A stretch of 64,000 bases of DNA from an uncultured virus (IMG/VR IMGVR_UViG_3300008954_002234) (taxonomy: Duplodnaviria > Heunggongvirae > Uroviricota > Caudoviricetes), in IMG/VR virus record IMGVR_UViG_3300008954_002234. One strand, written 5' to 3'. The notes beneath the pieces are model-generated. The model saw only the letters and a list, made by a program, of their open reading frames with translations. It searched no databases and was not told the DNA's origin. Made by a program: the position numbers and the translations under genes. Shown here piece by piece: positions 12,659-40,200 of this stretch. Position 1 is the stretch's first letter, and every line of letters starts with the position of its first letter.

Positions 12659-13733
12659 TATTTAAAAATTTTAATATCTTCTCTGTTGTATTTTTATAAG
12701 TAAATTTGCTCTGTAATTCTAATCCTTTTTCATTTATGGGATTTGATTCAACTCTTTTAATAGCTTTTTCGCAAGCGTCAATGAACTGATCTTCATTAAA
12801 ATCAAATATACTCCCTTGGTTATATTCTCCATTTTCTTTAAAGAAGATGCCATCTATTGAGCTAATCTTTCCGGAGGGTTCTACTAATACAGAATTTTCT
12901 TCCGTAGCCCACTCTTTATAGCCAGTGCAATTTGATATGACTGAATGCTTTCCGATCGCAACAGAATGAAACTCAGGCAAACCCCACCCCTCTCCTCCTG
13001 ACATTCCTATAATAACATTAGCCGAATTTAGATAATCGTTATATTGAATGTTTTTATCCATGAAGTTTAGGAACTGAACATTAAAATATCTCTTACCTTC
13101 TAAGATTCTAGAGATTAACTCGGGCATTTGCTTTGAGATAAAAGTATTATGTATGGCACATTGCAGATGATACTTTGAGTCATTGCCAAACCTTTTAGCC
13201 CAAGACTGGATTACCTTCTTGTGTCTCTTTCTTTTCTCTAGCTTGCCACATAGGTTGAAGACTATTCTTCCGTCATCATAATATTTTTTATCTAACTTTT
13301 TAAAATGGTATTTGTCAAAGCCCAAAGGTATAAAGTCGGAATCTATTCCGTAGTTAGAAAAAGTATCAATAGCATGCTTGCTAGTAAAAAGCAGCTTGTC
13401 TGCGTTAGATGCTATATTTACTTCGGCTGGAGTAGGCGAGTCAAGTTCGTAGAAAGATAAAAGTGTCTGATTTTTCCCGACAGAATTCAAACCGGAAGAA
13501 TTTAAGTGCCATAATTGGAAAGTAGGAAAGTCTCTTTTGTGTTTCCTTGGCCCCTTAGCTATGCAGGACTTTAGCCATTTTACAAAATCCTCATCTATAT
13601 TATAGGAAGATAAATCCTCATTAATGGGGAAAATGTTCGGCTCAAGCCCCATTGCATACAGTTCTTTTAGTATGCAATGGGAGACTTGACCGAAGCTTAA
13701 CTTATTTATTGGGACTTGAAGAGAAAAACCCAT
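12651..13733 (-). CDS. GT-B glycosyltransferase (GT4-like)
   Basis: IPLGFD, GKLEKRK, GEGWGLPEFHSVAIGK (variant E-x7-E motif). Confidence 0.85.
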   Translation of the reverse strand: MGFSLQVPINKLSFGQVSHCILKELYAMGLEPNIFPINEDLSSYNIDEDFVKWLKSCIAKGPRKHKRDFPTFQLWHLNSSGLNSVGKNQTLLSFYELDSPTPAEVNIASNADKLLFTSKHAIDTFSNYGIDSDFIPLGFDKYHFKKLDKKYYDDGRIVFNLCGKLEKRKRHKKVIQSWAKRFGNDSKYHLQCAIHNTFISKQMPELISRILEGKRYFNVQFLNFMDKNIQYNDYLNSANVIIGMSGGEGWGLPEFHSVAIGKHSVISNCTGYKEWATEENSVLVEPSGKISSIDGIFFKENGEYNQGSIFDFNEDQFIDACEKAIKRVESNPINEKGLELQSKFTYKNTTEKILKFLNNA

Positions 13734-14026
13734 CAAAGGAGAGCGTCTTCTTCCGAGGGTGTCTCTTTGGCTGTTTCTGCCGTCGGGGCAGAGCCCGGCT
13801 GCTGCTCAGCAGGCCGAGACAAATAGATCCTAAAATCCGGAGCGTTTTCAGACTTTTTGTCTTTGTTAAAGAAAGCTACTACGGGGATCTTCCTTTCCTC
13901 GCCGAACTCTGTTTCAATCTTAAAATGACCAGAGAAAAACTTTTTGCCGCTGCTCTGAGATGTTTTTGTCCAGAGTGCGCCAACCTCTCTCTTGTCCCAA
14001 TCGTTGTTAGTATTACTATCTGACAT
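13733..14026 (-). CDS. DUF736-like protein (possible ssDNA-binding)
   Basis: VGALWTK...FFSG...KKSENAPDFRI motif with an acidic tail. Start moved to ATG 14026 because ATG 14035 lies upstream of the predicted TSS. Confidence 0.7.
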   Translation of the reverse strand: MSDSNTNNDWDKREVGALWTKTSQSSGKKFFSGHFKIETEFGEERKIPVVAFFNKDKKSENAPDFRIYLSRPAEQQPGSAPTAETAKETPSEEDALL

Positions 14027-14036
14027 AACTTCCATT

Positions 14037-14065: not shown

Positions 14066-15236
14066 GCATTTTATTTCCTTTTGACATATTTTCTTGCGAC
14101 CAAAGTGGTTGCAGGTTAGTATAGTGATTAGGGCGATCGCCTTTAAACTTAGATATGGGGACTTTGTGGTCTATATGCCAAGAACCTGCGTGGTCTCCAT
14201 TTTCTCCTGCACCGTAGTTACACCAAGACATTCCGGGTTTAAACAAGGACTCTAAATGTTTTACAAGTTCTATTCTGGTGCATCCTATTCCTTGATTGAA
14301 ATTATTATCATGTGTTTTCATGAATGAGCTTAATCTCCTTCTTACGTTCCTTGCTGCCCTGTTCGCTGGACTCTTGCTATACTCTCTTCTTTTTTCTGGA
14401 TTGTTTAATTTCCACAGTTTGACTTTTTGTAAAAAATCATCCTTTTCCTCCTGAGTGTATCCCGCGTACTTAGCGGCGTGTCTTTTAGATTCGCAGTCTA
14501 AGCAATCAAAAGTGAGTATAGATCTGTCTTTTCCTGTATACCTAAACTCTTTAAAAGATTTTACCTCTCCGCATTTTCTGCATGGAGTCTTTTCGGAAAA
14601 ACTGTTAACAAAAAACTTAACCTTAAGAGAGCTTTCCTCTAACCACGGGTTCGCCTCATCATTCAAAAACAAAACCCAACCATTCTCTTTTAGGTTTAAT
14701 AATTTCTCAAAAGGTACTTCATGAGTGCCGCTGGTTTTGAATTTTCCTTGCGAAGCGTACTTAATAGTTTTCTCTAAGTCTTCTCTTGATATGACCTGAA
14801 CATAGTGCGAACCTGAAAGAGATGTTGGTGCTTGCAGAAAGTCAGAGATCATTCCGTCCTTAATTCTTATTCTCAAGAAGTCTCTGGCGCTCTTAAGGTT
14901 GCCTTTGTCGCTTTTACCACTTAGGCTTAATATCTTTCTGTCTCTAAGAATCCGAACTGCTTCACTAAGTTCAACTACGGATTGCTGAGGTACCCCTAGT
15001 ACATCCCTGTACCAATTAGCTTGCTTACGCTCGATATACAAGGACTTATTTTTTATCTCATAAGAAATATTATTACCCGCACTGTGAATAATCCGTATAT
15101 CGTTTACATTTAGGCAATCCTTGCATACTTCATCAACAGTAGAAGAATAGTAGAGCTTTACTCCTTCTATCCCTACGGTGATATTATAAAATTCACTTTC
15201 GGGCCGTTCTCGCAGACAAACGTTACATTCAATCAT
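14046..15236 (-). CDS. HNH endonuclease with two N-terminal Zn-finger modules (homing-endonuclease-like)
   Basis: CNVC..CKDC and CRKC..CLDC; C-terminal IGC...HLE..F..GMSW.NYG...WHIDHKVP...HYTNLQPLW..EN.SKGNK. Confidence 0.9.
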   Translation of the reverse strand: MIECNVCLRERPESEFYNITVGIEGVKLYYSSTVDEVCKDCLNVNDIRIIHSAGNNISYEIKNKSLYIERKQANWYRDVLGVPQQSVVELSEAVRILRDRKILSLSGKSDKGNLKSARDFLRIRIKDGMISDFLQAPTSLSGSHYVQVISREDLEKTIKYASQGKFKTSGTHEVPFEKLLNLKENGWVLFLNDEANPWLEESSLKVKFFVNSFSEKTPCRKCGEVKSFKEFRYTGKDRSILTFDCLDCESKRHAAKYAGYTQEEKDDFLQKVKLWKLNNPEKRREYSKSPANRAARNVRRRLSSFMKTHDNNFNQGIGCTRIELVKHLESLFKPGMSWCNYGAGENGDHAGSWHIDHKVPISKFKGDRPNHYTNLQPLWSQENMSKGNKMLDNEVS

Positions 15237-15796
15237 TTTTTATCTTTTATTTTTCTTTTTAGAACTTCGGCTCCTTTTCTATGTAAGTTTATTGCAGTTT
15301 GGGAGCTGAATCCTAGGGCTTTTCCTATATTAGCCCAAGTCATTTTATCTCCAGAGTAATATCTAAGCTTGTAAACATTCGATACTCTTTTGTCTTTTAG
15401 TTTTCCCAGCTCACTAAATATAAAACCTTTCATTTCTATATTTGAGTATGGATTCATTCTACTGTCTTCCGCCTTGTTGTTTTTAAGCCTTTCGCAAAGA
15501 AGCGACATTTTAGTTTTTTTATTTATTAAGTGTAGGCACCTATACTTAACATTATTACTTAGCCAAGTGCAGAAGCTGTACTTCTTAGTTAAGTCAAAAC
15601 TCTTCGCTGACTCGTAAATTATTAATGCTTTATCAGATAAGATATCACAGGGGTCAGCCCCTTTGCTAGATATTAAAGCACAGTATTTTGAGTACATAGA
15701 TAAAAAAACAGGGGAATACCTGTCTATTAACTTAATAAGAGAATCATTACAGTCCTTACTCTTTATTTTTTTTATTTCATTATAAAAGTTATTCAT
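15233..15796 (-). CDS. Phage RNA polymerase sigma factor (regions 2 and 4)
   Basis: Region 2-like LIDRY...YESAKSFD..K..FCTWL; region 4 HTH VYKLRY...TWANIGKALGFSSQTAINLHRKG. Confidence 0.85.
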   Translation of the reverse strand: MNNFYNEIKKIKSKDCNDSLIKLIDRYSPVFLSMYSKYCALISSKGADPCDILSDKALIIYESAKSFDLTKKYSFCTWLSNNVKYRCLHLINKKTKMSLLCERLKNNKAEDSRMNPYSNIEMKGFIFSELGKLKDKRVSNVYKLRYYSGDKMTWANIGKALGFSSQTAINLHRKGAEVLKRKIKDKK

Positions 15797-15820
15797 AATT
15801 TAAAAATATGCTAGATTGGG

Positions 15821-16197
15821 CACTCCGCTGCGCGAAGTGTAAAGTATTTTTTTTTGAGGTGATTATTGGTGGAATTATAAACTCTGGACACAGTCCACCC
15901 AACTAAGAAATTAAACAAACAATTACAAAAGAACGCTTTCGCTTCCATATTAGTTCCAATCGCAGGGACTCTCTCCTTTTCAGCCGTGTCTCTCAACAGC
16001 CTAGCTAATGACTCCTGTAACCTATTAAAAAGCGCGAATAATAAAAGGCAGAACTTTTTTAGATGGTTTCACTTCTCTCATACGCCGCCTGCACCCGCGT
16101 GTAGCGTACCTTCCAAGGTTCGAGAAGCCCCTTCGGGGTTGTTGGTCTCTTAAGAGTTACCAGACTCGCTTTCGCTGCAACCTTTTAATCGCACTTT
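15821..16197 (-). ncRNA. Putative ~380-nt multi-domain structured RNA (ncRNA or long leader)
   Basis: GC-richer non-coding tract. 5' stem 16181-16197 pairs with 16029-16048; second stem 16012-16020 pairs with 15923-15931; several hairpins. Wobbles are G-U on the minus strand, and the element starts at the predicted TSS. Confidence 0.7.
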
Positions 16198-16201
16198 CTT
16201 T

Positions 16202-16230
16202 ATTATAGATTTAGCTTGACTTTTTGTCAA
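16202..16230 (-). promoter_or_regulatory. Perfect-consensus sigma70 promoter (leftward)
   Basis: TTGACA (16230-16225)-17 nt-TATAAT (16207-16202); TSS about 16195. Confidence 0.9.
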
Positions 16231-16244
16231 GTTTTTTTTATAAT
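16216..16244 (+). promoter_or_regulatory. Sigma70 promoter (rightward), leaderless
   Basis: TTGACT-17 nt-TATAAT; predicted +1 coincides with the A of ATG 16251. Confidence 0.9.
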
Positions 16245-16250
16245 TAAGAA

Positions 16251-16703
16251 ATGGACAGACTGAGCTGGAAGCAGTATGGAATAGAATTATCTAAGACAGC
16301 AGCCCTTAGGAGCGAAGATCCTTTTGTGCAAGTGGGATGCTGCATTCTGAGGCCAGACAATAGCATAGCATCTTTAGGGTACAACGGAGCCCCTCCGGGA
16401 ATAAACATTGACTGGTCTAATAGAGACGACAGAAGAAAGAGGGTTGTTCACGCGGAGACAAATGCGCTAAGATTTATCAAACCCGGAGAAGCAGACAGGA
16501 TGTTCGTTACCCTCATGCCCTGCGCTGACTGTGTAAAAAATGCAGCCTCATATGGTATTAAGAACGTATTTTACATTAAAGCTTATGATTTCGATGCTTC
16601 AGCAATAGAGATAGCCCAAGAGTTTAAAATAACATTAGAACAAGTAAACAATGATCTCCGTATATATCAAAAAATTAGAAGAGTCGGCAACGATACCGAC
16701 TAG
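16251..16703 (+). CDS. dCMP deaminase
   Basis: RSEDP..QVG...GYNG...VVHAETNAL...PCADC. Confidence 0.93.
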   Translation: MDRLSWKQYGIELSKTAALRSEDPFVQVGCCILRPDNSIASLGYNGAPPGINIDWSNRDDRRKRVVHAETNALRFIKPGEADRMFVTLMPCADCVKNAASYGIKNVFYIKAYDFDASAIEIAQEFKITLEQVNNDLRIYQKIRRVGNDTD

Positions 16704-19360: not shown

Positions 19361-19377
19361 TTGGCACGGAAATTGCA
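19361..19377 (+). promoter_or_regulatory. Sigma54 (-24/-12) promoter upstream of Hsp20
   Basis: TTGGCAC-GGAAA-TTGCA, an exact TGGCAC-N5-TTGC consensus ending 14 nt before the ATG. Confidence 0.85.
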
Positions 19378-19391
19378 TTATAAAAAACAAT

Positions 19392-19796
19392 ATGAGTACA
19401 TTAACATTAGCAAATATGGGTTTAAGAAACGTATCTAATCTTTTTGATTACGTAAACGATAGTCTCGAGAAAGACTATGACGATTGGGCAAGCTCTTGGA
19501 AGAGCTGGGCTTCAGACAACAACACTCACTTCAATGAGACAGACGACGGCTATGAATTTTATGTAGCACTAGCAGGACTCACTAAAGATGAAGTAGACGT
19601 TTCCGTCCTTGACAACAGGGTTAAGATTGTAGCCAAAGGCAGCTCTGCCGGTAGAGAAGTTGAATATGATAAAGCCTTCTCTGTGCCGACTAAAGCAGAT
19701 GCAGAAACTTTGGAAGCTAAAATGGAAAACGGTATGCTGAGTATCACTATCAGTAAACGGGAAAAGGAAAAGAACCGAACCATTACGGTGAAATAG
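19392..19796 (+). CDS. Small heat-shock protein (Hsp20/alpha-crystallin)
   Basis: ETDDGYE..VALAG...V.V.V.D...F.VP...AKMENGMLSITISK. Confidence 0.93.
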   Translation: MSTLTLANMGLRNVSNLFDYVNDSLEKDYDDWASSWKSWASDNNTHFNETDDGYEFYVALAGLTKDEVDVSVLDNRVKIVAKGSSAGREVEYDKAFSVPTKADAETLEAKMENGMLSITISKREKEKNRTITVK

Positions 19797-19821
19797 ACAA
19801 ATAGCTACCATTAGCTTCTAC

Positions 19822-19852
19822 GAGCCGCCTTCGGGCGGCTCTATTTTTTTTT
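19822..19852 (+). terminator. Rho-independent terminator
   Basis: GAGCCGCC-TTCG-GGCGGCTC followed by TA and a T9 run. Confidence 0.93.
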
Positions 19853-19853
19853 A

Positions 19854-19882
19854 TTGACAAACAACCAAGTGTGAGCTATACT
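19854..19882 (+). promoter_or_regulatory. Sigma70 promoter
   Basis: TTGACA-17 nt-TATACT, 9 nt before ATG 19892. Confidence 0.85.
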
Positions 19883-19891
19883 TATTAAAGA

Positions 19892-24941: not shown

Positions 24942-25295
24942 TCACCACTTGTCCACCGGACAGCTCTCCTCACTAAAGTAAGTTTTAAGAGGAACTACGC
25001 ACCCGCATTTTGCGCACCTTTGTATTTTCTCTATGTACCACGAGCAAGACTTACATATACTAGTCCTTCTTTCCCTTTCTTCTATTGTTGCCACCACCTT
25101 ATCTCCAGATACTAAAGCCTTCGTTGTGTTAAGTAAGCTCCTCGATGCGTTTTTAGCCATCTGCAGCTTAGTTGGTAGTTTTACTTCTTCTTTTTTTAAA
25201 TCTTTTTTTATTATCTCTCTTGTTCTGTTTTTGTTAGCTGAGACATTAGGGCTCACTGGTTCTATATAAGATTCTGATATATATTTTCTACTCAT
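24942..25295 (-). CDS. Cys-rich DUF6171-like protein at end of tail module
   Basis: R..ICKSC...RCAKCGC...K......CPVDKW. Confidence 0.75.
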   Translation of the reverse strand: MSRKYISESYIEPVSPNVSANKNRTREIIKKDLKKEEVKLPTKLQMAKNASRSLLNTTKALVSGDKVVATIEERERRTSICKSCSWYIEKIQRCAKCGCVVPLKTYFSEESCPVDKW

Positions 25296-28200
25296 TTCTT
25301 CATTAAGTCAAGGATAAGCGGGTTATCTTCTGGCACATACAAAGTCTTAATTTCTCCGGGCATACAGTGATGAACACAAGGGCCTAGATAGTCATTTGGG
25401 TTATGAATATTCCTTCTTACAGCCTTTACATATTTATTAGCTTCATAAACCGCTAACGCCAAATTAAATTCAGGCTCAATCTCAAAAACCCCCTTAGCTG
25501 AAACACGCACCCCTTCCGCAGTCTCTTGAGAGGAGTATTTAGGACCAACCACCTCATCTCCGTCAGACAAATCAAAAGCAGCCTCATAAGAACCCTCTCT
25601 TACGTAAGACCCTTTTTTACCATTGCTACATATACTGTGGTAGCCACCATTCTCGTAGTCAACCTTTCCAATTACATCATTAGAACAAGTATATTTCTTA
25701 GTTACTGATGTTGCCAATATATCAGCTTCTTCTGGCCTGTATTTATCCCTTAGCTCTTCTGGCAGGGACAATATAAACTCATTATCAGCAATTATTTCAT
25801 ACTCTGTCCATACTTTAGTAGTTTCTAAAAAGGCAGACAGGAAAGGCTTATCTTTGGTCTGGCAACCAAATACTATCTTATTTTCATAGCCTGCTTGAAT
25901 ATAATCACTTCCTCTAATGTCTACCAACTCTGACAAAATAGGCTCAAAACCGTGAGACCCAACCTCCCCTACTTCTATTTGAGAGCCCTTGTGAAAAGGG
26001 AACTGATCTTCGCTAACATCGTAAGTCCTAGAAGTAGCGTAATTTAGTATCTCACCTCCATAAGCGTAAGCTCTCTTCTGCAAAGTAGTCGGCAGAGGTA
26101 AGCCTTCCCCTTTTATAGGATTTACAAAGCCTTTATCAACCTTCTCTCGTGCTGGAGGATTACAATAGACACCTACTTCCTTGTTAATGTTTACTGTATT
26201 AGGAAACCCAACATCAGTAGGAGTAAACTCAGCGCTCAGCTCTTTAAAGTTCTCTTCATCTACAAGTTTATCATCATTCTCGTCCCATATTTTCGACTTA
26301 TCAATATTATAATCCTCTATATTAGCTGACGTATTATTTGATTGAAATGTTCCCGCTCCATCAGCCGTAAACGCAGAAAAGTAAGCTCTTTTTGTTTTAT
26401 TATCACTAGGATCAAAATATACTATATAATTAACTTTTGATTTATTCTCGTAAGACAAGTAGTCAAATGTTGTTTCGTTATTTCCCCAAAGATAGCGACT
26501 TTCCCCAGCATCCTTAGAATCATCATCGCTTGCAAATTCTAACCCTGCCATTACTGGGTTACTTATATACCTATACTCAATCCTTTTAAACCTTCTTATC
26601 TTAGCATATACTGGCGCATTGACAGTTATCCTGCTCATGAAGTTTACGGCCCTAGCGTAAGTATTAAAAACCTCTGATGTTAAATTAGCTCCCGGCACCA
26701 GACCAAAAGACTCAGGTAAGTCGGAGTTATCCTCTCTAGAAAAAGAGCTAATCCAAGGAGTAGTCTTTTCTATTACCTTATTAGGTATCACCCTATAATC
26801 CGCAAGTGTACCATTGTTGGCTAAAGCTTTAGCAGAAGCAGCTACTACAGCAGGATGAGTCTCAAACTGAACAACATGTCTTATGCTGCCGTTAGCGTCA
26901 AAAGCTAACTGACTCGTGTTTTTAGTTCCTTCATCATCTTTATAATCAGTTGAACCTCTATTGTAATACCCCTCCATACTAGAGCTTTCTGTGCCTTTTA
27001 TCTCCCGTTCGTCTTGCTCTACAGCATCTCCATAAAAATCCTGATCCTGCAGATCAGAAAGCGTCTGATTAACAAAATTACCTATCGACTGAATTCTGTC
27101 GGCTTGATCTTGTATGTCAGACCAAGTTTTGTTATCCTCTGAGCTACCAACCATGAAGTCTACTTTTGGCTTAGAGTTGCTAGAGCTTACGTCATCCACA
27201 TTATAGTAATCATCTATGGAGTCTGTCTGTCGCCTAGTCAGCCCAAATTCCTCTTGGTACTCCTTAGGTAGAGAACTCTCATTTCCTGTTAAGGTTACAT
27301 CAACAACAGTTAACCCTTGCTGCTCAATCCAAGTTTCAGCAACCCCTTCTGTGATGTACTCTAAACCTTTCTCACTGTAAGTATTTTTGTTGCCAATAGT
27401 AGTTGCTTGACTTATAACAGGCATGCTAGATACTTTATGTTGTTCTATTCTTTTGTTCTTCTGCTTATCCGATAAATCAACATACCCATGGCCACCGTTA
27501 GTTACTTCAATAAACTTAATCTTACCGTCCTCTATGGTAGCCCTTCCCTTAGCCTGTTGTCCCTCATCTGGCGCAGCTATCGTAACTGTTGGGGCGGTTC
27601 TGTAGTTAGCTCCTTTACTTAACAAGACCACCTTAGATATTCCCCCTCTATTTATTTTATCTTTGTAGCTAGCCCTCATACTATGATCAAAGTTTATCAT
27701 ATAAAGCCTAGTATAAGGTGTATCTATCTCCAAATTAGAATTCTTTTTAATATAATGGAACTCACCAAGAGTGCTTGTTCCAGACTTAGGAAAGGACACA
27801 GACTTGCCTATTAAATCATTTTCTGAAAGATTTATAGAGTACTTGCCATTAACAGACGAGCCCAACTTAGAGTCTATTATAGTAGAAGTCCATTTGAAAG
27901 GTATTCTAAGTGCGCTATTATTAGCAATTTTAATTTCCAAGTTTTTATTAACGTACGATATTTCTGCCTTAGTAATTTTTAACCTGTATTTATCGGTGTC
28001 ATTTATTTCTTTTTTAGTTTTTACTTTATATTTATCTTTTATAGAGTCTAAACCTGTATCAAAATCGTCCCATGTAGAAGTATTTGAGTTATATTTCTGC
28101 AGATCGCATTTAAATCTTTCAGGCTTAACAAAGAAGTTCGCGGCCTCTCCATCAAAGTCCTTTTCAAAACCTTGCCAAAAGTCTCTTATAGTATAAGATA

Positions 28201-31200
28201 AAGTATATTTATCAGAGTATGTAGCGTATATATATTGACAAGTAGCTGGCATACCCATGTCATAAAATAAATTATTAGCAAACGCTCTCCCAGTAATAGG
28301 CTTTGCTTCATTATCAAACGTAGTCAAATTGTCCCGCTTCTGAGTGTACGTTAATAAAGACTGATAGCCCTCTGTTTTGTAAGATGGATTTACATTCTTA
28401 AATACATTATCATTATCTGTTAAAGGCTCTTCGTCATTCAAAACAGGCAGCTGATAGTCAAAATAATCAAGAGACATATTTGCCTCATCGCTAGTGTACT
28501 TAGTGGAGTGCGGCTCGCTATTTATATATTCGACTCCTTCCACAAAACATATACTACTATAAATAATTTGTTTTCTTTCTTGTTCTGTAGTGTTTTCGCC
28601 ATTAATTACTATTTGTAAGTTCTCTTCTGTATTTTGTATTATATTTGTACCCTCACTCAAATCAGTAGAGCCTATTTTGGCGCTCTTTATACTATGGTGT
28701 TTCCGATAAATGTATCTATATTCTATATTTTTATTGAGCTTAACATTGTATGTATATACATTATCTTTATAGTTAACTGTATCTATTGCGCAGTTAGGTC
28801 TATATAGAAGATTTTTAAAAGATAAAAAGATATCCTTTATTTGAGACCAGTGGTTGTCTATAGTAGCGTCTTCGTGATTTGGGTTTATATACATTTCCAA
28901 ATTGTGAACAGTTCCGTCTGGCCATTTATCTACATTCTCCCATGAATAATTATTTAGAGTTTGTCCTCCGCTATTTTCCGCGTTCCAATATTTTGCTACG
29001 GTAGATAGCTCAAGGTTGGCCCTGACTGTATCTCCGGAGTATACCTCTCCTCCCCACTTATCTACAGAAATATCATCATCATTGATATCGGTGAACGGAG
29101 CTTCTAAAAAGAAAGTTAGATTGGAGATACAAATAGGGTAACTTAAAGTAGTCAAAGGATCTGTAGCAGCATTTTCGTCTGCCTGTTCAACTTTATATAT
29201 CTTTTTAAGCACCGAAGGCTCTGCTCTATGAGTGCCATCTGGCTCCGTTGCTAAGTCAAAATAGTTTACTATTTTGTAGTGGTCCTCGTTAGTTAAAGTG
29301 ACAGTATTGTCGTTACCAATGTTATCATAATCTTCCTTGGTAAATATTTTTAATAGTCTAAAAGAATACAATTCAGTTGCGTCGTTGTACGCTGTTACCT
29401 TAATAAAATATACCCCACCGTCACTCTTTAACAGCACCGAATCTCCATTACGTACAGGGGTTTCAGATGTTATTGTAGTAGATCCGTTAAAGTTTTTATT
29501 CTCACCACTTTGACTCAGCTTTACCCAGCTGCCCCTTTGCTTCACGACCCCTCCGGGCTTAGCTATATCATGATAAGATATTGAATTTACTTCCGTGTCT
29601 AGGTAGTACTGCAAGCTAGTAGACGAAGCATTATTAGTTAAGTAAGCGCCGACTTTGTCATCTGTCTTTAAGTCTTCAAAGACCAACTTGCGTTCTGTAA
29701 GCTTTTTCAGCCTGAACCTAATTTTGTCATACCTTTGTTTTCCCCTACTGGATATCAAATTTATCCCAAAAAACTCTGGAGAAGCATCTCTTATTGCATA
29801 CGTATCAAAAGGCAAGAAAGCATAACCAATATTATTCTTAAGGGTCTTCATCCTGTTACCAAGGACTAGCCTTACTCTCTTCTCAAAGTCAGAGGCATAT
29901 GTATTACTAGTGCTATGATCGTGGCCAGCGTGATCCGTATTAACTTCAGAGAAGCCTCCTTGAGTTGCGTCTTTCTTGAAGTCTAAATCAAGGCTTTTTA
30001 GCACTCCGTCAGGACGGAATACTAAAGTTTTATCAGAGGACACAGCGAGAACCATTGCCACCTTAGAGGCGTCTCCCCCAGTAAGGCTGTTCGCAGGAAA
30101 AGTAAATTCACTTTTTATCTCATATTCATAACCGGGATATTCTATATAGTAGTCGTCCTTATTAAACCCAACCCTAATGACGGAGTTCCCTTCACCGTCT
30201 TCTCTTAAACTTATAGGCTCGCTATCGACTATATTAAGAGAAGGAGAAACTCCATCCTTTTTAGGTATTACAAATTCAAAGTAATATTGGTCTTGGAATA
30301 CTTCTTCTTGACTATCTTCATCGGACACTTTAACTTTTTGTTTTATCCATTCCCCATCTATATCCCCCAACCTCCTACCTTTAATTAACTCTACGCTATC
30401 ACCAGAGGAGACTTTATCTATTATCTCACCAGCAACAAACTCATCTTTATCATCTTGAGAAGTAACGACACTCCACTGAGGGCTTTGTATATCATGATCC
30501 GCGCTGTCCATTCTGGCCTCCAACTCTTCGCTTATCTCTTTTGATTCGGCCTCAAAAAGTTCCTTATCTTCTTCCGCTTGGTCTTCTTCCAGATCAACCA
30601 CAAACTGAGAGCTTTTAAATAAAGCGTAATAATGGTATTTTATACTATATGTTGCGTGTCCAGCCACTCCCCTAAACTTCTCTCCGGGAGCGTACTCTTT
30701 TCCCATGTATATAACCACCGGCTGAAAGTCTCTATCCTCTGTTCCTTCAGCGTCTATATCAAGCTCTTCTTTTGTTGCGTCGTCTCTACCATATTTATGG
30801 AAAGGGTATTCTGTAGCTTTAAGTCTTTGAGAATCGGAAACAAAATTATAGTTGCTAGCATCAAAATCTTCTAGGGCATACTCTCTATTGGCCTCTATGC
30901 CACCAAAAGTAACCAAGTTATTCCTTTCGTCAAACTTTTTACAATGACACAATCTCTCATGTCCTGTATTGAGTGAGTAAGCTATTACATTGTGCGGCAT
31001 GTTCCAAGACAACTTAAGTCCATTAGCTATATAATCTATAGGGTTTTTGTCATAAATAATACTCTTCTGTCCGTCTTTCTTATTCCCATATAAAGTAACT
31101 CCAAATTTATAAAAAGTATTGTAGTGTTCTATACTATCATAACCAGAGCCTATTCCGAACTGATAGTAGTTTGTCTGGAACATATTAGAAAACTTGTATC

Positions 31201-34200
31201 TGGCTCCTATATAGTCAACCATTATTTCTTTTCTTAATATGCTTTGGGCATTGTCTTCTACTTCATCATAGTAATCTATATCTTTTATTAAATTTTGTAT
31301 GTCGGCGCTCTTAAGTTTCAAGAACCAGTCTCTTTTGTTGTATCTTGGGCATAGACCATAAGAGGCATCGCCTGAAGAAAAGTCCACTCTCTCCGAGGAA
31401 TATAACTTAGTCGAACTCTCCCCATTGATAGACACATCAATGTTTGATCTGGAAGCATTCATCAACTTAAACGTATCGCTGCTAGCCTCAACATCGGCGG
31501 GCTGAGTTATCACGTAATTAGCTCCTTCTATGAAATGCTTAGGCCTAATAACGTCATATTCTTCCCTCTTTAAAGCGTTAGCGCCGTCTACGCCCTCATA
31601 AAAGGCCCGACTGGGATTTAAGGTACTCTGCCTAGACTGTGACTCATCTGATGAATCAAGTTTTGCGTTTATCCTGTCATCATAAACATAACAAGGGTTA
31701 CGTCCAATATTCGCATAGAGTAATTCTTTTTTATCATTACCGGCGTTATAGAATATATCATAGCTGTCCTTGAAAATTAAAATCTTATTAGTATAGGAAG
31801 ACTTGTTTAAATAAGCTGATTTAAAAAGACTAATTCCCCCTCTACCCGGATCTGAGCTATACTTACTCGCTCCTTTCTGACTAAGAACTTTATCTTCTCC
31901 TTTAAACTTGATATCATAGAAAGAATCTTTATAAGTCTGTAGTTCAGTTATGCTTGGATTACTATTCCCATTTTGAGAACAAGATAGCATGACCCTAGGG
32001 TGTACGTCTTGTACAGCATCTTCCGACTGATACTTCTCATTGTTAGAATCAAGCCTCCTGAACTCATAAGAGTACCTATCATCCTCTCTTTGCACGCTAT
32101 ATATAGAAAATCCAGTAGATTGATTATTTTTAAATGTATAATGATAAAACTTTTTAGCAAGAATTACCTTGTTGTTAACAGAAGTATCTAATACAAACTC
32201 ATTAACATGACACAAAGGAGAAATAGGCTCACCTTGCCCAGAACTGGTAAAAGTAGCCGCGTCACTTGTTGTAATCTTTATCGGGTCTTGTGTCCTGTTA
32301 GTAACTGTATAGCCAACAGCAAAACTCTTTGTTCTCCCATCCCAGTTTTTTCTGCTTTCTATATCGTCTTTGCTTTTCCTCGGTAAATAATCATATATAT
32401 CGATAAAAGGCACAAGAGTAGTATTAAAAAAGCTATCAGAATCAAACTTGATAAATTCAACTGTACTTGAGTCAAAATAAACTACCTTATTCTCATAAAT
32501 ATTTCTGTCTAAGTTTAGGCCAACATCGACTTTAGAAAACTCTATATTTTTATTTTTGTTTAGTATGTTAAAGTTGGCACCACCCGAAGTTGTCAAATCA
32601 ACATAGCAGTCTGCTGGCAGCTCATATACACCAGAAGAGCCATCGATAGTTCCGCCACTTCCATGATTAACATGCCTTATATGAAACGTCTTAGAAGTAT
32701 TATTTAAAATCTTTATATCTTTTAAAGAGCTATTAAGCAACAAAGGAGTAGAGCTTGAATTGACGTTCGAAGCTAAAAACTCTCCCGTCTTAGAATAATA
32801 AAGGGAATTACCAAGAGAGACGGCCTCTATACCATAAGTGGCATTACTACTTACGTCCGAGTAAGTAATAGCGAAAGACGAATAAGAACCTTTAATTCTC
32901 TTAACTGTTCCTGCTGCCATAGTCGCTGAAACAGTTCCGGTTGGGTCCACTAAGCTGCAAGAATGCCTTGAAGCATTAACTAATGTAAAATAGAAATCCT
33001 GAGAATCTCCCTCGTACGCATTTATATAGATCGACAACGAAGGTAAGTATATATTAGCTCCGTGTTTTACTATCTTTTGGATAAAAACATCGTTTTCTTG
33101 CGGGCCTTCCTCCGGTTCAATATTCTGTATGATTTCATCTTCTTTTATTATATATCTTACCTTATGCACCGACCTGCCTATTAAATCCGTCCTATGCTCA
33201 GATACAGTATTACGATCTTTATCAAAAAGGCAATCTTCACTATATTCAATGCTTGTTATTATCTCTTCATCTGCCGGGCTTCCATCTTCATCTTCTACTA
33301 TTTCCTTAACAGCTTTTGTTTTTATTAAATCTTTTATAGATAGCTTTAATATTTCGCCTTTTTCTAAATAATTTTTATATACATTTTGACGCTGGAAGCT
33401 CGTTAGCTGTCCATCTGAGTATCCCCATAAAGAATATTGTTCATTTACAGGCTTAGAATCAAAATAACCAAGCAGCTCCGAGTTCAAATCAGTAGTGTCT
33501 TTTATTCTCTCGCTATTATGACCACCAAAGAAGTTGGCCTCAACAGAAGAAATTTTAAGGTTTTCATAGCCGTGATTGATAATATTTAAAGTACTATTTC
33601 CCTCTGAGCCTAAACCAACTAGCCTATAGTAATCGTCTGCCTCTTTGCTTTCGTCAGGCTTAAGAACGAAATTCGTTTCCTCCATTTCCTTTTGCTCTGA
33701 CTTTCTGTAATATACATCTAAACTGATTTGTATCTCTTTACCAAACACATGATGAGTCTTTTCTTTGTCTAACGAGACAGCAGGATACTCTATTTCTCTT
33801 TGTTCGTTAATCAACGGAAAAAGAGACTTAAACTGAATAGTAGCGTGTACCCTGAAATAGTCATAATCATCAAGGAAGTGTGTCGCCGCACTTAAATCAT
33901 CGTCCGTCTTAAAGTTCTCTATTTGAGCTTTATAAGTTACCCTAGAATGTAATACATTATCTGATTTATTATTATCTACAGGAATTAACTCTATTTGATC
34001 TATTAGCCTTATAGGCTTTGTTGAAACATTTATTATATTAAAATTACTAAAAGAATCACTATTGCCTGTAGGTCTATATTCCCAATTTCCCCATTCTGGA
34101 TCGACATTCTCTCTATAATCATCGGTTCCATCTGGATTATAAAGGTAAGGCATAGTAACGATAAAATCTTTCTCAACTATTATATCTTTTCCATTATGTA

Positions 34201-37200
34201 TCTCATGATCATAAAATATTCTATTCGGTGCTGTCAAATAGAAGGAGTCAACTTTTGATCCTTGTTTTATCGCATTGAGCGGACGCGCGTCAAAGCCTGA
34301 GTACTCGCCATCCTCGCCATCCTCAAAGGATATAACCTCTCCAAGCAGTATAGAATATTTTTCTAAACCTATAGAAAAGCCCAATTCGTTACCGTAATCT
34401 GTGGATGTGGCTGTTAATGGGACTTGGGGGTTGACCCCGTAATTAGAGGCGTTACTTATTAACAAACCTTTAAGCGCATCTATAGTCACAGAAAGAGTTC
34501 TAGAGAAATTGACCACCTTAACAGGCATATTGCTAACATTTAAGATAGCCACATTACCCAAATTAGAGAAAGAGTCTGGCAATACTATTATATCATTCTT
34601 ATCATAAAGACCTCTTATGAAATCGTATATAACAAAATTCAACAGCCCTCCATCATACCCGAAGGGAGTAGCAGCCGAATCAAACCCTAAGCTTTTTCTG
34701 TCTGGTATATGAGCTTCGTTAGACGGATAATAAATAGCCTCCCTATTAGAAGTATTAAAGTTCTGCACAGTAAAGCTACCGTTTCCACCATGCTTATATA
34801 TTCTCTTCTTTGAAAATGTGTCCTGAGAAGCATCATTTGTATTATACATAACAACCTCTTCATCAGAACCGTTAATCATTATATCGTTATCAAAATCATT
34901 GTCGGTTAAAGCAGCTTTAGCTGTAAACTCACCACTTGCTAAAATTTGATTGCCTACAGCTTGAAGTTTAGTTATATTGTTAGTATCTATTCCATTCGTA
35001 GAATCATAGCCCAATGCAACATGTATTCCAGATTCAGCTAAGTCTCCGCTAGAGAAATTTCCTAAAGTATCATGTCTATAATCATTATAATCGAGCGCTC
35101 CCAATCCGCCTCCTATGGCCTGTTGGTCGCTGAACTTTTTAATTGATGTTTCCTCTGCCCCAACGTTTAATATAGTAGCAGATCGATGCCCTAGGTTCTC
35201 TACTTTGAAAAATTCTGAGAAAAAGTAAAAATCGCTAGAGCCAGTAACATTAATTTTAGAAGCATCAGACAAGCTATTAGAGGTATGAAGATAAAAACTA
35301 TTCTCGTTTATTACTTGTATATAGTAAGTCTGAGCCTTTTTATTATCTGTAAAGTCTAAGTTTGCAGCCAAAGAAGTTCCAGCTGCCTCAGCTGTAGCGG
35401 CACTTAGCTTGGTCTGCTGCAAGGCAAACACCTCGCCCGCATCAACACCCGCCTCATTAGAGTCTTTATTAATATATACAAAAGCTAATTTATCATTTAG
35501 CTTAAGTTTTGCGCCCGTTTCTCTGAGCCCAGAGTCTACGTCAGCCATAAAGAAACTAGCTTCTTCAAGTTTCCCGCCCTTATATGTGAAATAGAAAAAC
35601 TCTCCGGCTTTTTGAAGCCAGACAAGTAAAGACTCTCCCTCTGCTATACTTGTTGCACCCGTTACAACTCCATTCCAGTTAGCTTTAAAATACTCTATGT
35701 CATCGTCCTGTTCTCCATCATCAATTTCATAATAATAATCAGCTATAGTCAACCTCTTACTATCGAAAGTTATTTTTTGACCAGATACAAAATCATGATT
35801 TAGAAGGTTAAATTTATCATTTCCTTCTGGAGATATCCTTTTTGAGCTAGTGTCAATGGAATATTTATGAACTTTTTTAACTTCTTGATCAATTCCAACA
35901 AGCTCTTTTAACTCCAAGAATCTCTTTATGTCAAGAGCAGATAAAGAACCATCAAATATAGCCACGTCGCCATCAACTAAAAAGTTATCCTTTCTCGGAC
36001 TCTTTGCATTAGTTAGTTGCAGATTGTCGTAGTTGCTAACGTCTGCACCTTTCTTAAAGACTGATTCAACACTACCAAAAGGAAAGACTGTGTTAATAAG
36101 CTTATCCGCATTATCTGGGTAGACTACGCCCATGCTGGACTCTGAATTGTTTATCAATATAGCGTTGTATCCCTGCGCTGTATTAAAATCACCACCTAGC
36201 GTCGGAAGCTCGAAAGCAAAATCGTCTTGGTAATTTATAGCTACCTGAGTTTTACTGTTTCCGGGATGAGATAATCTATGCTTGTTGGCTCTTTCACTTG
36301 ATACGGTATTAACATAAAATTTACTATGCTTTGCTTTTTCATTATCATCAGCGCCTTGAGCGACTTTAGATATTTTAACAAAATTTGACCTAGAGATAGA
36401 AGTTTCATAACTCTCAACATCTTCCTCTTTACCTTCGGCAGCAAATCTACAGAAATCATTTTCAGCAGAAAGATTTACAGTAAATTCATCAACTGCATTC
36501 TGGCTTGTTAAAAATATCTCAAAATTTTGAGGGTAGTCGTTCGACTCTTCGAAAAGTATTCCGATCCCCTCTGCTTGTTCCATAGAATATACTTTTCCAT
36601 GAGATTGCGGTCCAACTGATATACCGCCATCAGTTAGTAAGGGTATATTTTCAAAGGCCCAACCATAAGACTTTTTCTCGATACGCAACCCAAGAACTTC
36701 TCTTCCGGCAACATACTCTAATTCATCGTCAACAAAGACCCTCATTATGGGCAGTTTTGCCGTAGCTGTCCCTTTAACTTGAGATCTTAACACACTAAAG
36801 CTGAAACCCGTGCTTGTGCTAGCAGAGTCTATCCTTACATCTACATCTTCATTATGTATAAAAACATCTCCGTCATTACTATTAGCTACGGAAAGTTGGT
36901 TATATTTTATAACATCAATATCAGAGGTAGTCCAAGCGCTACTAGAATAGGTAAATTTTCTAGTCTTGTTTTTGGGTATAAAATCTACAGGTTTAGAATC
37001 TATTTTAAAATTAGAATCTGAGACCACTTCTACATCATGGTTGGTAGAATTTAAAAGTGTTATATGCTCAGAATCATTGAAGCCATCTGGCAAATAGACT
37101 TTAGAGTCAGTGTCTATAACGCCAGTTATATTAGCGTCACTATCTGTAAATCTTATTTTATCATGCTCAAATAACACAACGCCAGAAAGAGTTGGAGACT

Positions 37201-40200
37201 CCTTAGTACCGTCTGATAAGTATGTGACCCCCTGTAAAGAACCAAGAGTTGAGTCTTGAGAGCCTTGAGAGCCTTGGTCAGAAGCAACAAAACAACTTCC
37301 AGTAGATATGTTAGCCAAGACAGCGCTCCTCTCTAGCCTTGAGTCACTTACATGAACCGTACTTAAGTCGTCCAGAATGACTAAGCTGGCTTCATCATCA
37401 GAAGAATCATTCTTTACTACAGGCACTATGCTTTCAATAGGGGTCTCGGTGCCCTTAGATGCTGTGCCAGCGCTGTCTACTGTAACAGTCGATAAAGTCT
37501 TCTCAGAAAAGGTAATGCCACCTGCTGCTTTGTCGTCATCATCTATGTTTATAACATCGAATGAATAGTCTTTTCCTTGTATTGAAAAGTCCCCACCGGA
37601 CAAAAGGAATGTGTTATCTAACTTATCCTCCTCTGGCCAAACCTTATCATCGCTATTTATCTCAAAGCTTCCAGTTATGTATGGGCTGTTGTAGAACTCA
37701 TGAACAGGTCTATACGATACACCGCTTACGCCAGTCTCTATTGATACGCCCCCACCCCCTGTGACAAAAGAGGAGCAAGAAAAGTTAATTATCTGTCCAT
37801 CGTTATAATCGACGTCTCCGCTGGTGTGCCCATATATATCAAACGTACTAAATGCCTCTAACCCCTCAAAATGCGTACCTGTGATAGAAGGAGTAAAAAA
37901 CAACCTTGTCTGCCCTCCGTCCAAACCGACGCTCTCTCCTGTCTTTATAAATGGCTCCCCAAAACTCTTTTCTACTCTATTGAGAATCAGCCCACTGGGC
38001 CTTAAACCAACAACAGTCTTAATTTTTTCTGTGCTATCTATAGCTGAATCGGCGTTATATATCCTTAAACCAGTCAAGTTCGTAACTTCGTAAGGCTTGT
38101 TGTTTTCCATGTTAGAAAACTCGGAAGTAGAAGAAGGTTGGCCTCCTTCAGCCATTGAGAAAGTGTCATCAATAGATAAAGACTGAACCTTCATCTCGTC
38201 ACTGGTGTCAGAGCTTAGTAATATTTTCTCACTCGAGTCTTTATGTACTATATAAGTCTCATTTGGATCTAAGTGCACGATCCCCTGACTATCGTCAATC
38301 TCGGTATAGTTACTAGCCTGAGATGAATCTTCATCATTTGCAGCTTTTTGAGTTATATCTAATAAAGTACCTGTTGTCGGGACGCTAATCTCCAAAGGCA
38401 TAAAATTAAGTTTCTTTATAACCTCGGCGTTTGAACTAGTTGAAGATATAGATATTTTTTGTCTTTTTTCTACTCTAAACTCTATCTCTTCTGGCTTATA
38501 CTTTTTAGTTATATCAGTTTTATTAATTAAAGTAGGTACTATGTAAGCATGGTTAATGTTTCCAAAAGAATTTGGGTCGCCTCCACTATAATCATCATTT
38601 AAAAACAGAAAATAATCCTCGTAAGAGCTAACAGAATCTACATCAGTCCAATTACTTCCCGAATCTAAAGAATATTGAAGTTGATACGCCCATCCGCCTT
38701 GAGCAGATCTGGAATTTTTAAAACCAGTGTCGGATATTATAACAGCATCTTTTGTATAAAGTTTATATACATATTTTGTTACCCTTAATCTAGACCCCCC
38801 TTCAAAAGAAGAGTTTTTTGAGCTATGAAATGGCATGAGCCTAGAATCTTCTCCTCCTTTTTTACCAAGCCTTATATTCTCTATAGAAGAATTTCCTAAA
38901 TATTCATAATAGTAAGGAGCCTTGTTATCATTGAATCTATTAACTGATCTTTTTGAATTTCTTGTTCTGTAATGATAATTATCTAATTTTACTCTAGAGA
39001 AAACGGCAGAACTAGACGGTCCAGACGACCCGGAAGAGTTATCGACCACTATAGGTTCTCCCTCGTAATTCTTATTTATATGTGGGTTGTTCGGCGCTCT
39101 ATACGCATAGCTACTAATATAGTTTGTCTGAGCCCTTGAAATGGAGCGATTCTGCAGTGATGAGTTAAACAACATCCATTCGCTCATATGCTGAGTTGCC
39201 TCACCTTCATTCTCTTCGTGATAATCGTCCGGAGGGTTTACATTATTAAAAGTATTTTTATTAATTACCCAACTAGACAGAGGGCTGATATATCTGCTAT
39301 AATTGAATTTAAGTATTTTATATCTTCTTGGCAGAGGATCAAAACCAAAGTCGCTTTTAGGTATAGATCCCCCTATCCCTCTATATATAGATTGACCTAT
39401 ATATATTCTAGGTTGATAAAGGTTGGCCTTTAAGCCTTGACCTATAACTAAAGCCGCGCTGCTACTCGACACTTTAAAGGCGTCATATGCTGTATCCTCT
39501 TCCAAATCTTGACGCTTTCCTTCATCATACAAGTACAACTTTGAAACCGGCTCATTTTCGCTGCCTCTTTCTACTACTTTTGCTATAGCTATATGCTTCC
39601 AAGCATTTTGCCAATTATTGCTCAATGAATACGAATAAGTTGTACCTTTCAAGTCAATCTTCAAAGTGTCTTGGTCATGCATGTATATCTTAAATACGCC
39701 CGACCTTTCAAAAATTACTTTATTGTTTGATGATCCATTGTCATAACCCTTGATCCAAAACTCAAAAGAAAATTCGCCCGGCAAAATATTGAAGGCTCTA
39801 CTGCGAGAAACTGCAGCGCCATCATCAAATGATATTTGTAAATAATTAGCGTTGTTGCCATCAAATACCATTTGATATACATTAGTACCACCCCAAGTCA
39901 CCTGAGAAGTAGTTACTCCGTTGGTTGTTGTCTGACTTATGTTGTGACTAAACTTAGATAAATCATAAAACTTATGAGAAGCCGCGCTCTTTAATATTAA
40001 GCTATCTGGAGATTCACTGGCAAAGGTCATCTCCCTGAAGTCAGTAACAACAGGGGAAGTAAACCACTCTACTATCCTGTAGTTGGCATCAGTGTCGCTA
40101 GATACACCATTTACAGACTCTGTCATTGCTGACTCAGACGTAGCCTCTATTGCATGAGAAATAGTTTGCCAAGCAGACTGAGCATCTGCCCTATGTTGTA

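Follow-up and report, generated by a model that had tools for sequence, protein, structure and literature searches.

A conserved two-domain structured RNA before an ECF-like sigma factor gene in an uncultured seawater phage and its relatives

A 64,000-nucleotide (nt) stretch of DNA from an uncultured virus of the Caudoviricetes (IMG/VR record IMGVR_UViG_3300008954_002234), referred to here as the window, carries a conserved non-coding structured RNA directly before a gene for an extracytoplasmic function (ECF)-like sigma factor. The source phage belongs to an uncultured lineage from seawater. Comparison with related phage DNA shows that the RNA exists, which strand encodes it, how it is built and that its position before the sigma gene is fixed. 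The RNA spans positions 15821–16195 of the minus strand (~375 nt), with a promoter at its start and a hairpin at its end. It lies in a 455-nt gap between the ATG of the sigma gene (minus strand, 15233–15796) and the ATG of a dCMP deaminase gene (plus strand, 16251). As an earlier note on this DNA had stated, the tract is the sole long non-coding stretch of the window: once open reading frames (ORFs) of at least 50 amino acids (aa) are placed, the next largest gap measures 145 nt. The perfect minus-strand promoter described there (TTGACA-17-TATAAT, 16230..16202) is likewise confirmed, and places the predicted +1 at ~16195.

Covariation and architecture of the RNA

Searched with an alignment, the viral contigs yielded 25 loci that carry a homologue of the sigma factor; a single-protein query gave no relative. 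In the nine closest viral loci, the ~360 nt upstream of sigma are 77–88% identical to the window at the nucleotide level, and the sigma protein is 55–70% identical. Scanning with a pattern built from two invariant blocks of the RNA recovered the same nine viral contigs and 52 metagenome stretches, 29 of which are true relatives (72–94% identity) and 23 GC-rich chance matches. All nine matches from the viral collection and all 29 true metagenome matches sit at the same type of locus. The sigma start codon follows the last hairpin by 16–25 nt in every relative that extends far enough (23/23), which bears out the proposed tie between the RNA and the sigma gene. A further 20 pattern loci in cellular genomes were rejected, since all belong to GC-rich bacteria (GC 0.52–0.77) and the best nhmmer match (E 0.14) is confined to the pattern itself. 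Among cultured phages (INPHARED), the RNA has no DNA match.

After removal of duplicates, the window and 25 distinct sequences, all from uncultured phage contigs, were aligned with MAFFT blind to structure (26 rows, alignment A3). Three rows are cut by contig ends (L054, L079 and L070), and L039 follows the family through domain 1 only. Covariation was counted over 89 pairs in 17 helices, with two kinds of control: partners slid by 1–3 columns and 500 column shuffles. Standard pairs fill 92.2% of cells, against 42.7–45.5% in the slid controls, a measure that favours the structure, which was defined from the window sequence with A3 in view. Pairs changed on both sides number 28, against 9–17 in the slid controls, and the covariation score is 0.221, against 0.060–0.085. 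On each of five measures, the observed value is reached by 0/500 shuffles. This covariation supports a model, drawn from RNAalifold and direct reading of A3, of some 15 helices arranged in two domains, together with a long-range pseudoknot (Table 1).

The pairing also bears on strand. The argument that G–U pairs reveal selection on one strand holds in the alignment: columns 169/186 form U–G in 26/26 rows, and columns 255/360 form G–U in 23 of the 25 rows with letters there. The many G–U and U–G pairs on the minus strand thus fix the RNA strand. We found no conserved ORF in the tract, where the longest ORFs vary in position and strand across 22 sequences and the longest in the 94%-identical L069 has 21 aa. 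Sorted by codon phase, variable columns number 57/58/54 in the RNA, with no periodicity, against 3/2/8 in the first codons of sigma. On these comparisons, the tract is not protein-coding.

Table 1 Features of the RNA, its promoter and the adjoining genes. Positions are those of the window; A3 is the 26-row alignment, and R1 is a covariance model of domain 2.
Feature	Position	Strand	Support
Sigma-70-type promoter of the RNA	16202..16230	-	12/12 match; -35 and -10 columns nearly invariant in A3
Divergent promoter TTGACT-17-TATAAT, overlapping the RNA promoter	16216..16244	+	Arrangement conserved in A3
Domain 1	16031..16195	-	A3 covariation; single-sequence centroid fold reproduces the covariation-supported helices
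P1, closes domain 1, starts at the predicted +1	16189-16195 with 16031-16037	-	3/7 pairs changed on both sides
P1b, closes domain 1	16181-16187 with 16042-16048	-	A3
P2, GAAA hairpin, domain 1	16168-16175	-	A3
P3/P3a, domain 1	16141-16165	-	A3
P4, CCCC-GAA-GGGG, domain 1	16128-16138	-	A3
P5, encloses P5a and P5b	16122-16127 with 16072-16077	-	2/6 pairs changed on both sides
P5a, hairpin of variable length	16108-16119	-	Outer part, 3/3 pairs changed on both sides
P5b, invariant core of ~22 nt, CUACAMGCGGGUGCAGGCGGCG	16082-16107	-	A3
Conserved single-stranded junction CCAUCUAAAAAAGUUCUG, family form CAUCUAARAAAGUUCUA	16049..16066	-	A3
Pseudoknot, AGUUCUR with YAGAACU, 6-7 base pairs	16049-16055 with 15952-15958	-	97% of cells paired
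Domain 2	15921..16022	-	Covariation; RNAalifold; model R1
P6, closes domain 2, 11 base pairs	16012-16022 with 15921-15931	-	7/11 pairs changed on both sides
Near-invariant junction UCAUUAGCUAG with palindrome UAGCUA, family form UCAYYAGCUAG	16001-16011	-	A3
P8, domain 2	15983-16000	-	3/5 pairs changed on both sides
P9, domain 2	15966-15976	-	A3
Invariant CCUGCGA..GAACUAAUAUGG, domain 2	15945-15966	-	A3
P10, second GNRA (GAAA) hairpin, domain 2	15932-15945	-	A3
Invariant AAGUUGGGUG and hairpin P11 (UGGGUG, 5-nt loop, UGUCCA; hairpin 15885-15901)	15885..15906	-	A3
Variable A-rich spacer, sequence unconserved, length varies by tens of bases	15840..15884	-	A3 columns ~400-470
3′ hairpin CACUUCGC-GCA-GCGGAGUG, 7-8 pairs	15821..15839	-	99% of cells paired; 5/8 pairs changed on both sides
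AU-rich 24-nt spacer to the sigma start codon, no Shine-Dalgarno-like sequence	15797..15820	-	Sequence reading
ECF-like two-domain sigma factor gene, 187 aa, first gene of the RNA-led operon	15233..15796	-	Homologue-family profile
HNH/endonuclease VII-like gene, 396 aa	14046..15236	-	phrog_1035, E 1.2e-23

Support is uneven among the helices. RNAalifold finds P6, P8 and P11 unaided; in P11, 95% of cells are paired and changes are mostly one-sided. Scores are poor for P1b, P9 and the inner part of P5a (65–80% paired), where MAFFT shifts the register by one base, and P3, P4 and P5b are so nearly invariant that covariation neither supports nor contradicts them. The pseudoknot shows one double change, in L070, where GUCCU faces AGGAC. 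The invariant stretch of domain 2 reads CCCUGCGA..GRACUAA..UGGAAGC in its family form. Covariance model R1 scores 162.6 bits in the window and finds no second copy there.

Stems traced in the earlier note are upheld by A3 in both domains. In domain 1 these are the long-range stem, GC-GAAA-GC, UGGU..CUC-UUAA-GAG..ACCA, CCCC-GAA-GGGG, and CUUCUC/GAGAAG, which encloses ACCUU/AAGGU and ACGCU/GGCGU. The stem proposed to close domain 2, the second GCGAAAGC hairpin and the last hairpin, ending 24 nt before the ATG, stand as well. Two stems had to be redrawn. For UGUU-GAGA-GACA, covariation supports another register, GCUGU/ACGGC. The 3′ half of GGUGGA/UCCACC falls in the variable spacer and the stem is already broken in the 94%-identical L069; the conserved UGGGUG/UGUCCA hairpin replaces it.

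Three further candidates were rejected. A pairing of CAUUAG with CUAAUAUG has uncompensated variants, as judged by eye on A3. A canonical 11-nt GAAA receptor at UAUGG lacks its partner strand, and the UAU varies. GGA motifs are few and not conserved, contrary to a CsrA sponge. Separately, the 1,196-bp contig of L039 (positions 1–488; coverage 3.6 by its name) carries domain 1 followed by complete divergence; its assembly is chimeric, or else it is a natural variant with domain 1 alone.

Other phage groups and known RNA families

A second group of loci (L016–L024) encodes a sigma factor that is 35–38% identical, preceded by a gap of ~490 nt (~850 nt in L021). The upstream neighbour is a co-oriented ORF and differs from that of the window. 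A 16-mer scan added three further contigs of this group and one false match (L091). Five distinct sequences (set A5), namely L016 (2465–2975), L021 (2098–2720), L022, L090 and L096, all have a TTGAC promoter and a leader of ~450 nt that is conserved among them. The structure defined on L016 is paired in 85.7% of cells, against 32–40% when slid, with 22 pairs changed on both sides against 3–8.

The 5′ end of the second-group leader pairs with a segment just before AUAG, and is followed by the 5′ strand of P6, UCACUAGCUA, a hairpin, UGCGAU, GACU, GAUGUGG and the 3′ strand of P6. Common to both groups is the order P1 3′ strand, AUAG, P6 5′ strand, UCAYUAGCUA, P8, UGCGAU, pseudoknot strand, RAUGUGG and P6 3′ strand. 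In the second group, AAGUC(R) directly before the 3′ strand of P1 is complementary to UGACU, giving an equivalent of the pseudoknot that is one pair shorter. P9 and P10 are missing from this leader, and AAGGA stands before the ATG. No U tract follows its last hairpin, and sigma would accordingly be read there as one transcript with the leader. On architecture the RNAs of the two groups are probably homologous; statistically, this is not established. The second-group leader also contains an internal repeat, AAGGCGAUGGUGGA. In a third group (L010–L015 and L025), sigma abuts a dNMP-kinase-like gene and leaves no room for an RNA.

That the RNA belongs to no known family, as the earlier note surmised, agrees with Rfam 15, which gives 0 matches at gathering scores in the whole window. 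The families covered include GOLLD, ROOL, HEARO, OLE, raiA, 6S, T-box, tmRNA, RNase P and the IMES motifs. At E up to 10, positions 15600–16400 yield four weak matches far below gathering scores (for DicF, on the plus strand, 18.3 versus 48 bits), and neither the T-box model nor any other Rfam riboswitch model matches. The leaders of five related loci gave no match to Rfam 15 either, and full-text literature searches found no published description of the RNA.

GOLLD, ROOL, OLE, raiA and HEARO are large orphan 'ornate' RNAs of bacteria and phages. Like them, the RNA described here is large and multi-helix, resides in phage DNA, has GNRA tetraloops and a pseudoknot, and is conserved above the neighbouring sigma gene. 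It differs from them in having no Rfam 15 match and in being fixed at one position directly before a sigma gene. Its conserved core of ~330 nt is smaller than GOLLD or ROOL. 6S RNA, a long and largely double-stranded rod with a central open-promoter-like bubble, was considered and rejected: the structure here consists of two multibranch domains joined by a pseudoknot, and the 6S model gives no match.

A catalogue of 10,006 viral candidate structured RNAs derived from IMG/VR (Fremin et al. 2023, PMC10690425) places two of its entries, DNAVirus_4829 (39 nt) and DNAVirus_1961 (103 nt), immediately ahead of sigma-like genes, and neither has the size of this RNA. Six contig identifiers and the invariant 12-mer are absent from the readable files of the catalogue, and a listing elsewhere in it is possible. 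The dCas12f–guide RNA–sigmaE system of RNA-guided transcription (PMC12259090) shares with our locus a non-coding RNA genetically linked to an ECF-type sigma gene. Unlike that system, our locus has no recognised Cas12f-like gene among the part of the window's ORFs that was scanned, nor is one reported near sigma in related loci; the RNA has no repeat/guide organisation, and related phages keep sigma without the RNA.

Models for the function of the RNA

We tentatively favour a leader that acts in cis to gate the operon of the ECF-like sigma, a reading that we hold as a reasonable candidate and no more firmly than that. Early in infection, host sigma-70 RNA polymerase would transcribe the ~375-nt two-domain RNA from the consensus promoter. 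The 5′ end would pair 160 nt downstream to form domain 1, a second closing helix would form domain 2, and the pseudoknot would tie both. In this cis-acting role, the folded core may bind some factor, whether RNA polymerase itself, another protein or a small molecule. Binding would set either transcription past the 3′ hairpin or translation from the sigma start, which lacks a Shine–Dalgarno sequence, and the outcome would be control over the timing and strength of the switch of host polymerase to the phage sigma. We infer all three elements, transcription from the promoter, cis action and the gating mechanism. No match emerged when positions 15400–16600 were compared, at 80% likeness, with three sets of seawater metatranscriptome contigs from the same study, which has no bearing either way on expression.

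We prefer a cis-acting leader because two groups whose upstream neighbours differ both keep the position before sigma, the spacing from hairpin to ATG is constrained, there is no other promoter, and the second group lacks a terminator. Between the 3′ hairpin and the sigma ATG we find no promoter, and 24 nt leaves no room for one. Other genes of the window do carry AAGGAAG-type sites, unlike sigma, which also fits a controlled leader. As in riboswitch and T-box leaders, a promoter is followed by a long conserved folded leader, and a hairpin stands immediately ahead of the gene to be controlled. That the unpaired blocks are invariant implies a factor that recognises them, and they could in principle form a binding pocket, as in riboswitch leaders.

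Several results weigh against a gating leader, the first of them against a structured RNA altogether. Folding energy is no better than that of dinucleotide shuffles for the whole 404-nt tract (z +0.89), domain 1 (z −0.68) or domain 2 (z +0.85), with z +0.38 for the plus strand, an outcome that the earlier note had named as grounds for refuting an RNA function. We retain the RNA because we judge covariation to be the more specific test, and to outweigh energy. Homology between the two RNA groups finds little help in the searches: model R1 with default filters gives no second-group match, with filters off it hits the right place in 5/5 second-group sequences at 6.9–9.2 bits (E 0.8–3, among noise), and nhmmer between the groups is not significant in either direction. 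The third group has sigma without the RNA, so sigma does not need it, and the RNA–sigma partnership that the earlier note had entertained is unlikely to be obligatory. The 5′ end, the 3′ end and read-through into sigma are themselves predicted from sequence.

The 3′ hairpin adds to these objections. Its stem free energy ranges from −6.7 to −16.2 kcal/mol across sequences. Uridines in the first 12 nt after the stem number 6–8 in 18/23 sequences, 4–5 in three and 2 in the window and L069. In the window the U tract is weak and terminator prediction does not flag the hairpin. In most relatives, the hairpin with its U-rich tail and a preceding A-rich run is terminator-like, and an ordinary terminator there would make a discrete, free RNA. 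Across the relatives, we found no conserved alternative pairing (antiterminator or anti-sequestrator) of the core with the 3′ hairpin, and no upstream segment of 6–8 nt resembling either hairpin half recurs. These negatives, and a spacer whose length differs by tens of bases, count against an expression platform of the classical riboswitch type. In this the RNA differs from riboswitch and T-box attenuators, and it is also larger than most riboswitch aptamers; without a classical switch, its mechanism is more likely to be something other than that of a standard riboswitch.

The same hairpin is the starting point for the closest competitor, a free-standing RNA of ~375 nt that acts in trans or assembles with itself, as a scaffold, decoy or RNA-only oligomer, with sigma expressed by leaky read-through. 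We consider this possible, if on the unlikely side. It accounts for an RNA with its own consensus promoter, for the terminator-like end of the 18/23 sequences that have both the U-rich tail and the A-rich run, and for a core without alternative pairing to that hairpin. The long invariant single-stranded blocks, among them the UAGCUA palindrome present in both groups, could be binding or kissing sites, and two hairpins carry GAAA tetraloops. GOLLD, ROOL and OLE are reported to form homo-oligomers (PMC12286853). A free RNA leaves unexplained why the position before sigma is kept in both groups despite their differing upstream neighbours and why the distance from hairpin to ATG is held at 16–25 nt. 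There is also no proper U tract in the window, L069 or the second group, and complementary targets elsewhere in the window are no longer than 10–12 nt, which is chance level.

A bolder proposal, which we rate as unlikely, is that the RNA represents a new class of large sensor/effector RNA that binds host RNA polymerase, sigma-70 or the phage ECF-like sigma, and so decides the hand-over between sigma factors. Contact may be made via the invariant unpaired blocks UCAYUAGCUA, CUGCGA..GAACUAAUAUGG and GCGGGUGCAGGCGGCG; in a variant of this proposal, the RNA may self-assemble via the conserved UAGCUA palindrome. If true, this would be an RNA-level switch of polymerase specificity without a described counterpart.

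Few large RNAs combine many covarying helices with a pseudoknot and long unpaired blocks that do not vary, and those studied are ribozymes, riboswitches, ribonucleoprotein scaffolds and RNA-only assemblies. Sitting at a control point between a consensus early promoter and a phage sigma factor, the RNA may show how the take-over of host transcription is timed. That two groups with sigma factors 35–38% identical keep both its architecture and its place suggests an old link between RNA and sigma. With ~330 conserved bases and a clear structure model, it is compact enough to suit structure probing, ligand screens and cryo-EM.

The putL and putR RNAs of phage HK022 are processive antitermination RNAs of ~70 nt with two stem-loops. 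In a put-like scheme, the leader would bind its own polymerase and make it resistant to the hairpin and to terminators further along the operon. Like the put RNAs, this is a phage-encoded folded RNA directly after a strong early promoter, ahead of a terminator-like hairpin in most relatives and at the head of an operon without large gaps to ~10983, and library scans of window proteins recognised no N- or Q-like gene nearby. We nonetheless regard such a scheme as distinctly unlikely: the RNA is about five times larger than the put RNAs and has another architecture, with two domains, its sequence is unlike theirs, neither sequence nor model comparison links it to an Rfam family, and the second group offers no terminator-like hairpin to be overcome.

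Signals acting at the DNA level, such as operators or an embedded ECF-type autoregulatory promoter (GAAC-N17-CGT, 15933–15956), are very improbable: ECF sigmas often autoregulate and GAACTAATATGGAAGCGAAAGCGT fits the promoter pattern AAC-N16/17-CGT, but the motif is not enriched in the window (11 versus 13.9 in shuffles) and has no other match in the listed intergenic gaps, a 2-nt insertion of L070 in the would-be spacer keeps the hairpin and alters the spacing, a change of L070 in the would-be −35 is matched by a compensating one in the far strand of the pseudoknot, GAAC is absent from this place in the second group, and compensatory changes together with one-strand G–U pairs show selection at the RNA level.

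The sigma operon and other features of the window

We accept the gene downstream of the RNA as an ECF-like sigma factor with two domains (regions 2 and 4), an assignment that rests on profile comparison. Taken alone, the window protein gives a weak match to Pfam Sigma70_r2 (E 0.0016; 18.6 bits against a cut-off of 24). Metagenome protein sets contain 67 homologues, and a profile of 23 of the sigma homologues matches SigW (5wuq) over residues 4–186 with 5–186 (E 3.6e-5) as well as region 2 of FliA and SigA. Within this family, Sigma70_r2 is found in 19/23 members and region 4 in 11/23. tblastn finds no match to the sigma protein in cultured phages (INPHARED).

In related viral loci, sigma is followed directly by a 100-aa gene and then a glycosyltransferase gene. 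The 396-aa HNH gene, which in the window stands between sigma and the 100-aa gene, lacks homologues throughout the 25 related viral loci; the insertion is peculiar to this genome, falls outside the conserved unit and probably encodes a homing endonuclease. Its absence from all 25 loci refutes the suggestion of the earlier note that the HNH protein is a partner of the RNA. The 100-aa gene (13733–14035, minus strand, and in L001–L024) has a weak DUF736 match, always comes after sigma and is 35–82% identical across groups.

On the other side of the RNA, the −10 of the divergent promoter (TATAAT; TAAAAT in relatives) ends 6 nt before the ATG of the dCMP deaminase gene in the window and the aligned relatives, a spacing from which a leaderless mRNA is predicted. 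Between them, the two −35 hexamers make up a palindrome, CTTGACN5GTCAAG, that occurs nowhere else in the window. With an overlap of 15 bp, the two promoters are expected to compete for polymerase.

Beyond this locus, the window carries genes of an uncultured tailed phage, with products that include a tape-measure-like protein, a glycosyltransferase, a dNMP kinase, a dUTPase and Hsp20; no tRNA genes were found in it. A single ORF of 5,885 aa (25295–42949, minus strand) is followed by very long ORFs of 1,419, 1,083 and 1,717 aa. Seven long ORFs other than the 5,885-aa ORF were scanned against PHROG and gave no match except for a tape-measure-like N-terminus at 58682–63832. Sigma-54 promoters have the pattern TGGCAC-N5-TTGCA, which TGGCACGGAAATTGCA fits on the plus strand (19362–19377), 15 nt before an Hsp20-like gene (19392–19796). 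Directly downstream (19797–19891, plus strand), a textbook terminator, GAGCCGCC-TTCG-GGCGGCTC with a T run, directly precedes a TTGACA..TATACT promoter, and offers a full-strength example from the same phage to set beside the 3′ hairpin of the RNA, with which it contrasts.

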